Shown here in pieces: positions 2,790 through 37,400 of a stretch of DNA of 64,000 nucleotides (the stretch's first letter is position 1; each line of letters starts with the position of its first letter). The notes under the pieces were generated by a model that was not told the DNA's origin, ran no database searches, and saw nothing but the letters and a program-made list of their open reading frames with translations. Made by a program: the position numbers and the translations under genes. This DNA is from a virus. The stretch lies in IMG/VR virus record IMGVR_UViG_3300045988_140118. The stretch is one strand, 5' to 3'.

Positions 2790-4066
2790 CTACCGCAGAA
2801 CAACTTTTTATAGCGTGCTTGAAATACACCGATCAGAAAACGTTTTCCATGATCCAAAAAGATTGGTTGGAAGGAGAAGAATTACGCCAGTACAGATGTA
2901 TCGTTTCTTATTATCGGGAACATGGTGAACTGTTAGGACTACATACTTTCTGTACCAAATTTAAATTGGACTCTTCTGACGTGGACTCAAAACCTTCTTT
3001 TTATTTGAACGCTTTAAAGGAGCGTTTCATTATTACGGAACTTTCTGATAAGGTTCCTAAAATACTGAGAGGGTTGAAAAGTGATCCCAGACCTAAACTA
3101 ACGGAACTGCAATCTTTAGTAGCTGCCCTAGCCTCCGATTCCAGTGAGGTTAGGGATGTTCTGTACTCTGACGATACCGAACAAAGAAAGCTTGACTATG
3201 AAGAAAGGATGCGTTGTAATGGTGTTACCTATTTAAGTATGGGTAATAATGACCTTGATAAAACATTCTACGGCTATCGTAAACAGGACCTTATTACGAT
3301 TGGTGGTAGAGCCGGTCAAGGTAAAACATGGCTTCTTATCTATTTGGTGTATCTTCTTGAATGTGCATTGGAGGAACGTTCTGATGCTACCGGAGAGACG
3401 TTCAATGATATTTTATTTATCACGAATGAAATGGGTTCTGAGGAAATAAAGGAACGTCTTGACTGTATCCGTTTCCGGCTGCCTTATGAATCCTTTTTGA
3501 AAGGCTCTCTAACAAAAAGAGAACGTGCCCGATATTATAAAGGTCTTTCCGAATTAAAAGAGAAGCCCTCTCGTATACGTCTAGCCTACAGTTGCCAGAC
3601 ATTAGACGAACTGACTACTTTAGTCGGTATCTATCAGCCTTGCGCTGTCTTTGTGGACGGTTCTTATATGATGGAGCCTAGGATGCAGGAAGGTTGGGAA
3701 AAAATAACCTTTATTACCAGAGGACTGAAACGACTGGCTAAAAATACATTGACCCCCATAGTTAATACCACCCAGTTAAAAAAGGGAACTGGTAAAGGGG
3801 TTTCTAAAATGGCTCTTGACGGACAAGATGATTTTGCGTATTCTTCGTCTTATACGCAGGACTCCGATATTGCTTTCCGGTTGTTTCAAGATGCTGATAT
3901 GAAATTTCACTCAGAAATTGGAGCTGAAGTAGTAAAGGGACGACGTGTAGTTACAGGAACTACTATCGTGTTTAAAAATGATCTCGACTTAATGGATTTA
4001 TCACTTACTTTACCTATAGATGACGATGAAGCAGACAGAGCACCAAAAGTTACTGATGACTACTAA
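2786..4066 (+). CDS. DnaB-like replicative DNA helicase
   Basis: Walker A GGRAGQGKTW, Walker B-like VFVDGSYMM, and TTQLKKG; 426 aa. Confidence 0.85.
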   Translation: MTTAEQLFIACLKYTDQKTFSMIQKDWLEGEELRQYRCIVSYYREHGELLGLHTFCTKFKLDSSDVDSKPSFYLNALKERFIITELSDKVPKILRGLKSDPRPKLTELQSLVAALASDSSEVRDVLYSDDTEQRKLDYEERMRCNGVTYLSMGNNDLDKTFYGYRKQDLITIGGRAGQGKTWLLIYLVYLLECALEERSDATGETFNDILFITNEMGSEEIKERLDCIRFRLPYESFLKGSLTKRERARYYKGLSELKEKPSRIRLAYSCQTLDELTTLVGIYQPCAVFVDGSYMMEPRMQEGWEKITFITRGLKRLAKNTLTPIVNTTQLKKGTGKGVSKMALDGQDDFAYSSSYTQDSDIAFRLFQDADMKFHSEIGAEVVKGRRVVTGTTIVFKNDLDLMDLSLTLPIDDDEADRAPKVTDDY

Positions 4067-18226: not shown

Positions 18227-18260
18227 AAAAAGCCTTTTCATTCACTTGGAGAGGCTTTTT
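18227..18260 (+). terminator. terminator-like hairpin
   Basis: AAAAAGCCT pairs with AGGCTTTTT (9-bp stem, 16-nt loop). Confidence 0.5.
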
Positions 18261-18275
18261 CATTATAAAAATTAT

Positions 18276-18995
18276 ATGGAGAAAAAAGTATTATTGTTTT
18301 CCGGAGGTTTTGACTCCACTTTACAGGAATGGCTGATTAAACCTGATGTGTTATTGTATGTGGATATGAAGACTTCTTATTCGGAGGTTGAAATAGAATT
18401 TTTAAAAACACTTCCCACTTATTATACAGATCGGCTTATTATAAAAGAGTGCCCCCTAGGAGAGTATGAACGTGAAAATAAGTACCTCCCTTATCGAAAT
18501 TTGATATTAGGGACTCTTGCTATGGAATATGGTCAACACGTTTACTTTGGGTTTAATGAAGCTGATAACGCTCCTGATAAAGATGATCTCTTCTTAAAAA
18601 GAATCACTTCCTTATTCAAACATTTGAACGTAAATTGTATTGGAGATATGGGATGGGAGAATAGGAAATTCAGTTTTAACGCTCCTTTTAAACATCTGAC
18701 AAAAACAGAACTGGTTGCCAAATGCCTTAAAAAAGGAATGGACCCTGAAGTAATCAGACATATCCGGTCTTGCTATGACGGAGTTTCTAAGATAGGTTGT
18801 GGTGTTTGTCGCCCTTGCATAAATCGAGCAGTGTCTCTGATAAATAACGGTATTTATTCAGATGACCTCTTTGATGCTCCGGTTACTCCTGAGAGTATAA
18901 AAGACTTGATCAAGAAAACCGAGGAATCTGAACACTCTAAAAATTATTATGCCGACCTTAAAAAAGCATATAAACGGATACGACAGAAGGGATAA
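18276..18995 (+). CDS. queC: QueC-like 7-cyano-7-deazaguanine synthase (PP-loop ATPase)
   Basis: N-terminal VLLFSGGFDST PP-loop and C-terminal Zn motif C-x9-CxxCxxC. ATG 18276 preferred over TTG 18246. Confidence 0.8.
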   Translation: MEKKVLLFSGGFDSTLQEWLIKPDVLLYVDMKTSYSEVEIEFLKTLPTYYTDRLIIKECPLGEYERENKYLPYRNLILGTLAMEYGQHVYFGFNEADNAPDKDDLFLKRITSLFKHLNVNCIGDMGWENRKFSFNAPFKHLTKTELVAKCLKKGMDPEVIRHIRSCYDGVSKIGCGVCRPCINRAVSLINNGIYSDDLFDAPVTPESIKDLIKKTEESEHSKNYYADLKKAYKRIRQKG

Positions 18996-26261: not shown

Positions 26262-26663
26262 ATGAAGAGTAAAAAAATAACCGTAATCATATCCTACGAT
26301 TACGAAGATAAAAATACCGTTAGTAATGATCGGATTGCCGACAGAGTAAAAAATGACTTGCTGAAAGGCAGTAATCCCAATCACGAAAAGATAGAATCCG
26401 TTACAGTGGAAGATAACCAAACAGAAATGAAACAAAAGATAGAAGAAGCAAAAGGAAAAATTAATCGCTATTATAGCGACTTTATTGAAAAATGCCGTGA
26501 AGTACATGGCATTGACTTAACAACAATCATCAGTGATTGTGTAACGGCCGGTTATGAATCCCGTTCGGATGAAATCATAGAGCTTAGGAGAAAATTAGAC
26601 GGCATAGAAGAAATGAATAGTGGTGGTAGTCATTTAACTAATAACAGTATAGAAAGGAGGTAA
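26262..26663 (+). CDS. hypothetical protein
   Basis: Packed ORF. Confidence 0.55.
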   Translation: MKSKKITVIISYDYEDKNTVSNDRIADRVKNDLLKGSNPNHEKIESVTVEDNQTEMKQKIEEAKGKINRYYSDFIEKCREVHGIDLTTIISDCVTAGYESRSDEIIELRRKLDGIEEMNSGGSHLTNNSIERR

Positions 26664-27713: not shown

Positions 27714-27779
27714 CCTAGTATAACATAGATGCTTTTAAATAAAGCTCTGTAGAATCATATAATTAAAACGAAAATTAAA

Positions 27780-27923
27780 ATGAAAAAGTACATTGGAACA
27801 AAACAAATTGAAGCGGAACCTATGACAATGGGAGAAGCTTTTGAGAAAAATTTACTGCTAACAGATGGTATAGAACCTACTGAAGTTGAAAAAGAGAAAA
27901 ACAGGTTACCATGTGAAGGATGA
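27780..27923 (+). CDS. N-terminal fragment of a gp49/Sf6-gp66-like domain (frame-disrupted)
   Basis: MKKYIGTKQIEAEPMTMGEAF, the family's N-terminal half. The continuation lies in the +1 frame. Confidence 0.5.
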   Translation: MKKYIGTKQIEAEPMTMGEAFEKNLLLTDGIEPTEVEKEKNRLPCEG

Positions 27924-28503
27924 ATATGGTTGTGAAAGCTGGTCGCCTGCCGAACCGTTTGAGGAAGCATATAAATGCGCTGACACTTTCCTTGACCGTT
28001 TGCAGATTGAGCATGATGATCTTGTAGAAAAGTATGACAAGTGCGAAAAGTTTGTAGATTCGGATAAGTTCCGTGAAATTGTACAAGAGGATTATCCGGC
28101 ATTTCTGTTATCATTGCAACGAAATGTGATGAATAGATATGGAAGTATTATTGAACAAAGAATGTCCATAGCTAAAGGAGAAACAAGCATTACAACACTG
28201 CCAAGAATGTCCTTTGGAGATGCAATCGAAGCGTTGAAGTTCGGTTTTGCCATCCGTAGAAAAGGCTGGAACGGTAAAGGTCTGATGGTATTCAAGCAAG
28301 TACCTGCCTACATAGAGAGTGACATCATTCCTAAGATGCAATCGCTTCCACAATCTGCAAAAGACCTTATTCTGAAAGGTAAAGGTTTTATTGACTATAC
28401 AAGTCAGTGCCTTATCTACAACGAGAATACCGGGCGTGCAGATTCATGGGTTCCGTCTATCAGTGATGTGTTTGCCGAAGATTGGGAGATTGTTACAAAA
28501 TAA
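27886..28503 (+). CDS. rest of the gp49-like domain fused to a DUF2829 (Tad2-like) domain
   Basis: GYHVKDEYGCESWSPAEPFEEAY then MSFGDAIEALKFGFAIRRKGWNGKG...SWVPSISDVFAEDWEIV. No ATG start (TTG only). Confidence 0.6.
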   Translation: MKKRKTGYHVKDEYGCESWSPAEPFEEAYKCADTFLDRLQIEHDDLVEKYDKCEKFVDSDKFREIVQEDYPAFLLSLQRNVMNRYGSIIEQRMSIAKGETSITTLPRMSFGDAIEALKFGFAIRRKGWNGKGLMVFKQVPAYIESDIIPKMQSLPQSAKDLILKGKGFIDYTSQCLIYNENTGRADSWVPSISDVFAEDWEIVTK

Positions 28504-28519: not shown

Positions 28520-29584
28520 ATGCCAAAATATAGAAAAAAACCAGTAGTTATTGAAGCTGTTAGATTCATTGTTGGGGCAGAAGTTCCAGTAATGAATTTC
28601 TTAGGTTTAACAGAAGAGTATCAATTAGTAGACAGTAAAGCTGCTCCTATACATTATAGAAATGATGTTGCTGAAATATTTATATATCAACCAGAAGTAG
28701 CTTCTCTTTATATTTATACGTTAGAAGGAAAAATGGAGGCTAAAGACGGTGATTACATCATTAAAGGTGTAAACGGTGAATTTTATCCTTGTAAACCGGA
28801 CATCTTCGAGAAGACTTATGATCTTGCTGACGAAGATTCTGAAAGCCTTATTGTAGATACGATTTATTCCTCTTTTATGGGAGAAGTAAATAAATTCGGG
28901 ATCGGTTCTTTATGTACGTTTGTACGATTACAAGGGTGTAACCTCAGATGTTATAAACGAACTTGCGGATTTTTATGTGACACCCCTGAAGCTCTCTTAG
29001 TCAAGAAGAGTTTTCCTGAAAAAGAGAAGACAATTCCCTGTATAGTTGATACGGTGGAAAAACTGGGAAACAAAATAATCTGTTTAACCGGAGGAGAGCC
29101 TCTACTACAAGAGGGAGTTGAAACTCTTCTTAAAACGTTATCTTCAAAAGGGTATAACGTAGTAGTGGAAACTAATGGAAGTGTGGGTATTTCTAAGTAC
29201 CGAAACATAGAAAATGTTAGTTTTGTAGTAGACTATAAACTACCCTCGACAGGAGAAGATGGTAAAATGGATTCTACTGTGTGGCCTCTTATGAAAGCAG
29301 ATGACTATCTAAAATTTGTGGTTTCAAACGGCGATGACTTACTAAACCTACGTACATGGTTAGGACTTTACGCTGCTTCTTTTAAAGGAATTATTGCAAT
29401 AGGTTCTATGTGGGAAGTATGTTGTTTTAGTCAAGAGGAACTGTTGGCCCACATATCTTCTTTATCTGTGGAATTTCCCTCTGTAAGATTTTGCTTAAAT
29501 ATGCAAACCCACAAACTGATAAGCCTTTACGATCAGACTCCGAAACTTGACTTACAAAGGATAAAAATCAAAAAAGATTTGTAG
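28520..29584 (+). CDS. queE: QueE-like radical-SAM 7-carboxy-7-deazaguanine synthase fused to an N-terminal ~105-aa phage domain
   Basis: RLQGCNLRC...CDT, CLTGGEPLLQ and VVETNGS; N-terminal domain KKPVVIEAVRF...GDYIIKGVNGEFYPCKPDIFEKTY. Confidence 0.8.
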   Translation: MPKYRKKPVVIEAVRFIVGAEVPVMNFLGLTEEYQLVDSKAAPIHYRNDVAEIFIYQPEVASLYIYTLEGKMEAKDGDYIIKGVNGEFYPCKPDIFEKTYDLADEDSESLIVDTIYSSFMGEVNKFGIGSLCTFVRLQGCNLRCYKRTCGFLCDTPEALLVKKSFPEKEKTIPCIVDTVEKLGNKIICLTGGEPLLQEGVETLLKTLSSKGYNVVVETNGSVGISKYRNIENVSFVVDYKLPSTGEDGKMDSTVWPLMKADDYLKFVVSNGDDLLNLRTWLGLYAASFKGIIAIGSMWEVCCFSQEELLAHISSLSVEFPSVRFCLNMQTHKLISLYDQTPKLDLQRIKIKKDL

Positions 29585-36722: not shown

Positions 36723-37400
36723 ATGTTAGATAAAACAAAAACCGATTCCGTATTAGGAGCAAGCGTAAATGAAATGCTTCTAGAGTTGGGAGTTGAAACT
36801 CCTATGGTTGGTTTAACTCCGTTAACGTCCGAAGATAAATACGCCAGTATAAAAGATGCTGTTTTTGATATTATGCAGTGTTTGGGTCTTGACACGGAGG
36901 ATGACAGTTTGGCACGTACTCCCCATAGAATAGCCAAGATGTTTTTGGACGAATTGTTTTGGGGACTTGACTACGATAATTTCCCGAAAATAACAACTAT
37001 CGAGAATAAAATGCAGTATAATTCCTTGCTAATGGAAAGACACATTAAAGTTCATTCTATGTGTGAGCATCATTTCGTACCCATTATCGGAGAAGCTTTT
37101 ATTGCATATATTCCCAACGAACGGGTGATAGGTCTTTCAAAGATCAATCGTGTTGTTGAGTTTTTCTGTAGAAGACCGCAAGTGCAAGAACGTTTATGTG
37201 AACAGATATTCCATACTTTACGCTATATTTTAGGCACCGAAAGCGTTGCCGTTCTTATTCGGGCAGAACATTCATGCGTAAAAGTAAGAGGTATTGAAGA
37301 TATTAACTCTGACACGCAGACGTGCAGATTCTCCGGTGCGTTTAATGAAGTAGCTACCAGAGGAGAGTTTTACAGTTTAATCGGCATGAATAATGGCTAA
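36723..37400 (+). CDS. folE: GTP cyclohydrolase I
   Basis: SMCEHHFVPIIGEAFIAYIP...IGLSKINRVVEFFCRRPQVQERL. Confidence 0.9.
   Translation: MLDKTKTDSVLGASVNEMLLELGVETPMVGLTPLTSEDKYASIKDAVFDIMQCLGLDTEDDSLARTPHRIAKMFLDELFWGLDYDNFPKITTIENKMQYNSLLMERHIKVHSMCEHHFVPIIGEAFIAYIPNERVIGLSKINRVVEFFCRRPQVQERLCEQIFHTLRYILGTESVAVLIRAEHSCVKVRGIEDINSDTQTCRFSGAFNEVATRGEFYSLIGMNNG

Follow-up and report, generated by a model that had tools for sequence, protein, structure and literature searches.

In the literature, Sequestin and Tad2 are described as nucleotide-signal sponge families that block Thoeris and, for some members, CBASS. Characteristically, Tad2 forms a homotetramer and blocks Thoeris by sequestering gcADPR, His-ADPR or cyclic nucleotides. 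PF13876, the N4 gp49/Sf6 gp66 family, has since been recognised as the CBASS sponge Acb4. Sequestin, which corresponds to PF21825, is a 3'cADPR sponge family that blocks type I Thoeris and is often fused to Tad2 or Acb4; Tal et al. counted 60 Tad2-PF21825 fusions, and the conserved pocket residues of SequestinA are R8, E12, Q47 and R61 (bioRxiv 10.1101/2025.07.12.664507). Loss of sponge genes has been described as well. In phages that escape the Panoptes system, the sponge gene acb2 has acquired frameshifts, stop codons or deletions, phage PaMx41 has a natural premature stop in acb2, and SptTad2 weakly triggers Panoptes (PMC12657218). Phage Ab09 is rescued on Panoptes by deleting acb4-sequestin (bioRxiv 10.64898/2026.06.04.730250). 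Both Sequestin-Tad2 fusion sponges and natural loss-of-function sponge alleles are already known, and the gene that we examine here belongs to both.

The gene lies in a 64,000-nucleotide stretch of viral DNA (IMG/VR record IMGVR_UViG_3300045988_140118), referred to throughout as the window. The window is phage-like, with a GC content of 37.6% and nearly all long ORFs on the plus strand, and it belongs to a gut Bacteroides phage; the phages of this sponge-gene group have genomes of about 91 kb. No Rfam family matched anywhere in the window, and a tRNA scan of it was empty. Three genes of the window are named here after the Pfam labels of the equivalent genes on related contigs:

18246-18995: QueC
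28520-29584: QueE-like radical SAM protein
36723-37400: GTP cyclohydrolase I

Together these suggest 7-deazaguanine DNA modification. The sponge gene immediately precedes the QueE-like gene, within an accessory region of anti-defence-like character, and is interrupted by a frame break. Its parts are as follows:

27780-27923, plus strand: ORF1, 47 aa (MKKYIGT...EVEKEKNRLPCEG*), whose residues 1-38 are the first half of the N-terminal domain
27921-27923, plus strand: TGA stop of ORF1, which closes an out-of-frame tail of 9 residues (EKNRLPCEG)
27886-28503, plus strand: ORF2, in the +1 frame (...KTGYHVKDEYGCESWSPAEPFEEAY...SWVPSISDVFAEDWEIVTK*), 205 aa from TTG 27886 or 196 aa from GTG 27913
27888-27902, plus strand: overlap of the ORF1 and ORF2 frames, GAAAAAGAGAAAAAC
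27889-27893, plus strand: the lesion, an A5 run that is A4 in in-frame alleles (alignments to L084-L091 and L227-L236)
27897-27901, plus strand: second A5 run, of the same length in in-frame relatives
27780-27975, plus strand: N-terminal beta-rich domain, residues 1-65 of the joined protein (PHROG, AlphaFold2 models)
27985-28167, plus strand: Sequestin domain (PF21825, crAss001_48), residues 69-129 (Pfam, AlphaFold2 model)
28207-28494, plus strand: Tad2-like domain (PF11195/DUF2829), residues 143-238 (Pfam, phmmer, Foldseek)

A minus-strand ORF at 27755-28114 overlaps this strongly conserved plus-strand gene.

The sequence-only reading that preceded this analysis had described ORF1 and its continuation in the +1 frame, had placed the meeting of the two frames in the overlap listed above, and had proposed that the two pieces rebuild one domain. 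The frames, their meeting point and all of the sequences quoted in support were found on the DNA as described. The proposal of a single, conserved domain also holds, because the alignments to PHROG 872, 32732 and 9467 run continuously over the junction; thousands of homologues encode the same domain in frame. ORF2 contains, in order, the second half of this N-terminal domain, Sequestin and Tad2, and the joined frames give a 240-aa (27-kDa) protein of three modules, with the predicted junction peptide ...EVEKRKTGYHVK....

The assignment of the C-terminal part to DUF2829/Tad2, likewise made from sequence at first, was right. Membership in the Tad2 and Sequestin families was judged by the Pfam gathering score, which both domains exceed. 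On the joined protein, PF11195 scores 67.4 bits (cut-off 25, E 1.6e-18) over profile positions 1-73 of 73. A phmmer comparison of the Tad2 part with solved Tad2 proteins returned 8wjd (3.7e-16), 8kbi (4.9e-12) and 8sme (1.5e-10), and 9eib also matched. The modeled Tad2 part matches the solved structures with a Foldseek probability of 1.0 and a target-normalised TM score of 0.52-0.72, at a model pLDDT of 57-83 in that region. Between this part and the N-terminal domain lies the Sequestin domain, which the first reading had overlooked. PF21825 scores 46 bits on the joined protein (cut-off 24.8, E 4.9e-12) over profile positions 2-60 of 61, and the region is helical in the AlphaFold2 model, with helices at residues 70-92, 95-100 and 105-131. 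In our alignment (A1), each of R73, E77, Q113 and R127 is either invariant or conserved to 90% or more, and their spacing, compared by residue numbering, is 4/36/14 as against 4/35/14 for the pocket residues of SequestinA.

The N-terminal domain is a different matter. It had been called an N4 gp49/Sf6 gp66-type domain, which would make it Acb4, and this call is rejected. Neither the joined protein (scanned with Pfam at E<=1) nor the P0004 variant and three N-domain sequences (at E<=10) gave a PF13876 hit, while the same scan detected it in Stenotrophomonas phage Philippe at 79.9 bits. No Pfam or NCBIfam family matched the domain at all. An N-domain profile did not match the solved Acb4 structure 9e4w in the PDB at E<=10, which residues 5-75 of the Philippe protein, its PF13876 part, do find. 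The AlphaFold2 model of the domain has four strands and one helix, and a Foldseek search of the PDB with this model returned nothing below E 0.9 and no fold match. Its matches in BFVD are uncharacterised viral proteins only, some of them stand-alone proteins of 65-68 aa. Finally, the 227-aa protein of Philippe carries the two as separate modules in tandem, with PF13876 at residues 8-80, a homologue of the N-domain at 98-160 and Sequestin at 166-224. This protein is encoded at 749-1432 of locus L226 (MZ326861.1), with a separate Tad2 gene two ORFs upstream.

As the arrangement in Philippe shows, the N-domain is found in the company of three different sponge families. In an unbiased IMG/VR sample, it occurs with Sequestin in proteins of 129-135 aa, with Tad2 in proteins of 166 aa and with both in proteins of 232-238 aa; three ORFs of 61-65 aa may hold it alone, and a downstream remainder is possible for these. 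Some relatives contain further material. A 351-aa variant from Bacteroides fragilis genomes and metagenomes (P0004, P0201-P0203) has four modules, with an inserted WDGH domain (PF25311, 126.9 bits) that follows the N-domain and precedes Sequestin, and P0204 and P0206 look like in-frame deletion derivatives of this variant. The N-domain is an unnamed module, and the reasoning from fusions through which Sequestin was discovered makes it a candidate new anti-defence module. Its occurrence alone, with Sequestin, with Tad2, with both, or after Acb4 as in Philippe is a useful side result of the analysis.

The lesion was located by comparison with the closest in-frame relatives, which have GAAGTTGAAAAGAGAAAAACAGG in place of the window's GAAGTTGAAAAAGAGAAAAACAGG. 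This puts a single additional A in the first run, at 27889-27893, and makes the true junction ...EVEKRKTGYHV. The second A5 run is not the site, because it is identical in the in-frame relatives. In the model, the affected position falls in the loop between helix 1 and strand 3 of the N-domain. The in-frame allele P0186 encodes exactly the predicted 240-aa protein and is found on 24-25 contigs of public collections, which are 99.8-99.95% identical to the window over 4.1 kb; the extra A is the sole difference from the window that all of them share. The exact 47-aa ORF1 is found on 14 contigs from at least 9 samples and several accession series, contig counts here and above not being counts of independent phage populations. 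These 14 contigs come from SPAdes, MEGAHIT-type and Logan assemblies, among them a SPAdes contig of 92,877 bp at 26x coverage. They show no differences from each other anywhere across the gene and share a C at 26361 with one in-frame contig, a background that fits a single recent origin of A5 followed by spread. What breaks the frame is a real insertion of one base, in an allele that is young and in circulation. The suggestion of a homopolymer indel was thus borne out as regards a recent mutation, seen against an allele that is 99.95% identical, and fails as regards an assembly error, since the same allele was recovered in many assemblies.

In this phage group, the gene has been damaged independently at least six to eight times in nature, the window allele being one such lesion. 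All of these lesions were checked on DNA except for the in-frame deletion in P0204/P0206, for which the comparison was at the protein level. The other lesions, together with two in related phages, are:

L092: one A added to the same A4 run, in a second lineage (99.3% identical to in-frame L084, different flanking SNP)
L250: 2-nt deletion of AG in the same loop
L237/L244: 23-nt deletion between TGCAGAT repeats (at least 4 contigs)
L239/L248: CAA to TAA at Q113, a conserved Sequestin residue (8 contigs)
L243: deletion that fuses the upstream 122-aa ORF to the end of the N-domain (10 contigs)
P0204/P0206: half of the N-domain deleted in frame (protein level only)
L245: loss of the whole gene and of upstream accessory ORFs
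L254, another phage: 1-nt deletion that splits Tad2 from the N-domain and Sequestin
L001, cultured Bacteroides phage BS162P1 (OP172706.1), 3001-3718: +1 break at an A6 run (AAT GAA AAA AGG), at the homologous position before the GY motif

L092 is a single Logan contig with three unique non-synonymous changes. In L245 (ERZ28572640, a contig of 80,611 bp, at about 780-1200), some 2 kb are gone, from within the 133-aa ORF up to QueE, an extent read off gene calls and a stretch of poor alignment and so not exact to the base; the lost block as a whole appears dispensable for the phage. The GenBank annotation of BS162P1 lists the downstream 208-aa part alone, as a hypothetical protein. An exact-pattern scan of IMG/VR and JGI metagenome contigs found neither the junction of the window nor that of BS162P1.

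When genome arrangements were sampled through the exact neighboring QueE protein, and thus independently of the state of the sponge gene, five of ten were intact, four were disrupted by different lesions and one was deleted. In the loci that were instead retrieved according to the condition of the sponge gene itself, all QueE genes were undamaged (27 of 27), and so were 16 of 17 copies of the upstream 122-aa ORF, with only the L243 fusion allele departing from this. Four of the six small lesions fall within about 30 nt of the purine-rich loop (P about 4e-5 under a uniform model), in a gene with 13 homopolymer runs of at least 4, and the Tad2 ORF is uninterrupted in every partial lesion.

With regard to expression from the broken allele, one added A means that translation from ATG 27780 stops after 47 residues and that the N-domain is destroyed. 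The ORF1 product, half a domain with a short tail, is very likely inert. The GTG at 27913 is in frame with ORF2, 8 nt before the ORF1 stop and behind an A-rich leader. Scored with a start-context matrix built from 79 genes of the window, its context reaches 2.25 bits, a value at the 43rd percentile among true starts and at the 99th among internal start-like codons, and gene callers picked the GTG start on other contigs. A 196-aa Sequestin-Tad2 product is plausible because this context scores like that of a genuine start, and the product is probably still made at some level.

The explanation that we favor, and hold to be quite probable, is ordinary, unprogrammed slippage in an accessory sponge gene that is recurrently lost in the same phage group; in other words, the phage most likely lost, through everyday mutation, a sponge module that it can do without or that at times harms it. 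Replication slippage in the clone represented by the window added one A to the A4 run in the purine-rich loop of the N-domain, leaving ORF1 truncated and the N-domain lost. The phage spreads well without the intact protein, with the Sequestin-Tad2 part presumably supplied to some extent from GTG 27913. The repeated losses would then reflect either relaxed selection or a disadvantage of the sponge, or specifically of its N-domain, in sponge-sensing hosts. Such a selective cause is our conjecture, for which the Panoptes escape mutants are a direct precedent.

The alternative that fares best gives the loss a use. The N-domain might be a liability that is sensed by some Bacteroides hosts, or a costly fourth sponge, and the slippage-prone loop a cheap switch that sheds the N-domain and keeps Sequestin-Tad2 through the GTG start, as a form of bet-hedging. 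It fits this reading that most lesions remove or uncouple the N-domain, that the partial lesions spare the Tad2 ORF and that the small lesions cluster in the loop. The two independent hits to the A4 run, together with the clustering, could mean more than simple slippage. The clustering and the spared Tad2 are suggestive, resting on few events and subject to some detection bias, and we regard bet-hedging as unlikely. If true, it would be a natural case of bet-hedging between Thoeris hosts and hosts with sponge-sensing guard systems.

A reversible switch is a related idea, and a distinctly doubtful one. In this case, the purine-rich loop with its A4/A5 run and GA repeat would be a contingency tract that turns the N-domain or the fusion off and on between hosts by phase variation. 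A4 and A5 do coexist on near-identical backgrounds (24-25 and 14 contigs), so that run length is polymorphic in a lineage whose backgrounds are 99.8% identical or more; L092 acquired its extra A in this run through a separate event, the AG deletion of L250 and the added A of BS162P1 fall in the same loop, the local density of small lesions is that given above (4 of 6 within about 30 nt, P about 4e-5 if uniform), and a real A7/A8/A9 tract varies two genes upstream. However, known contingency tracts are long, usually at least 7 nt, and switch repeatedly, whereas the run here is far shorter, at 4-5 nt, and no reversion was seen among the alleles. Moreover, the A5 contigs are all identical on the C26361 background, which fits a single origin, and irreversible alleles, namely nonsense mutations and deletions, are equally common.

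The upstream tract just mentioned deserves a description of its own. It is a poly-A run at 26270-26276, in codons 4-6 of a 133-aa ORF (26262-26663), and its length differs among near-identical contigs. A7, in the window and most contigs, is in frame; A8 (L233, L236) and A9 (L229) are frameshifted, and for these alleles the gene callers give a product of 100-101 aa. It resembles a classical contingency tract more closely than the A4/A5 site.

Recoding had been offered by the sequence-only reading in the form of a regulated frameshift. Programmed +1 ribosomal frameshifting or transcriptional slippage at GAA-AAA-GAG (GAAAAAGAG) would yield full-length and 47-aa products in a fixed proportion. As read from the sequence, a slip of tRNA-Lys from AAA to AAG in the +1 frame could give exactly the EVEKRKTGY of the in-frame allele, and the break in BS162P1 is at AAA-AGG, which puts the Arg codon AGG in the A site in a Ty1-like manner. 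In the window, the A-site codon is GAG, an ordinary codon and not a known pause codon, and transcriptional slippage as known needs a longer run than A5. Nor is the site conserved. Homologues fall into 2,967 clusters at E<=1e-10 and, among the matches listed, almost all are 237-240 aa long and in frame; the in-frame allele of the window's own lineage is on more contigs than the broken one. A break at the window's site was found in 0 of 120 IMG/VR loci that were picked only by their conserved 5' coding sequence, and 65 clusters of short N-terminal fragments have scattered end points in both alternative frames. Downstream of the site, a stretch of 87 nt has a folding energy of -17.7 kcal/mol, which does not stand out from shuffled sequence (z -0.67) and gives no sign of a stimulatory structure. 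A conserved recoding site is thereby rejected, and because the nonsense and deletion alleles are beyond rescue by any frameshift, regulated frameshifting is not supported. We consider this kind of recoding very unlikely and take the break to be unprogrammed.

Least probable of all, to the point that we set it aside, is a sequencing or assembly error that conceals a phage in frame, for which one could cite the position of the lesion in a homopolymer and a Logan contig of the lineage, L232, with several homopolymer insertions as in noisy reads, but which is opposed by an identical allele from different assemblers and samples, by an A5 run that is short for an Illumina error and by the reproducibility of the broken and in-frame alleles alike. 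Compared with window positions 26263-26347, L232 (Logan ERR14040686) has four extra single bases in about 90 nt, three of them in homopolymer runs, and single Logan contigs are therefore not to be trusted for homopolymer length.

The frameshift itself, as ordinary mutational loss, is of a common kind. What gives the locus its significance is that one gut phage of about 91 kb has at least 6 independent natural lesions of one multi-sponge gene, that about half of the sampled genome arrangements are affected and that the pattern is as in laboratory escape from sponge-sensing defences such as Panoptes. Whether counter-counter-defence of this kind operates in the human gut could thus be studied in a natural setting, and both the unusually frequent independent inactivation and the unannotated N-terminal module are worth following.

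Module by module, the gene can be set against what has been described. The C-terminal 96 residues align end to end with SptTad2 (8wjd), HgmTad2/AcrIIA7 (8kbi), SPO1 Tad2 (8sme) and Myroides ModTad2 (9eib), at 29-36% identity. The solved proteins stand alone, with about 90-100 aa, whereas the Tad2 of the window is the last module of a 240-aa fusion. The Tad2-Sequestin fusions of Tal et al. (bioRxiv 10.1101/2025.07.12.664507) likewise have both Pfam domains on one polypeptide in a phage accessory region. In contrast to these, the window protein, known here from its sequence, has an extra unannotated N-terminal beta domain, and its copy is split by a frameshift. The Acb4-Sequestin protein gp59 of Pseudomonas phage Ab09 and the protein of phage Philippe are also multi-module sponges with Sequestin on the C-terminal side, and in Philippe an N-domain of the window type stands directly ahead of Sequestin, at 98-160. 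The difference is that both of these have a true PF13876/Acb4 module, which the window protein does not, and that the Tad2 of Philippe is a separate gene. As for the lesions, the loss alleles of acb2 in Panoptes escape phages and in PaMx41 (PMC12657218) are like those of the window gene in kind, comprising small frameshifting indels, stops and larger deletions in a phage that remains viable. The Panoptes lesions of acb2 were selected in the laboratory against a defined system, whereas those described here are natural alleles in gut metagenomes.
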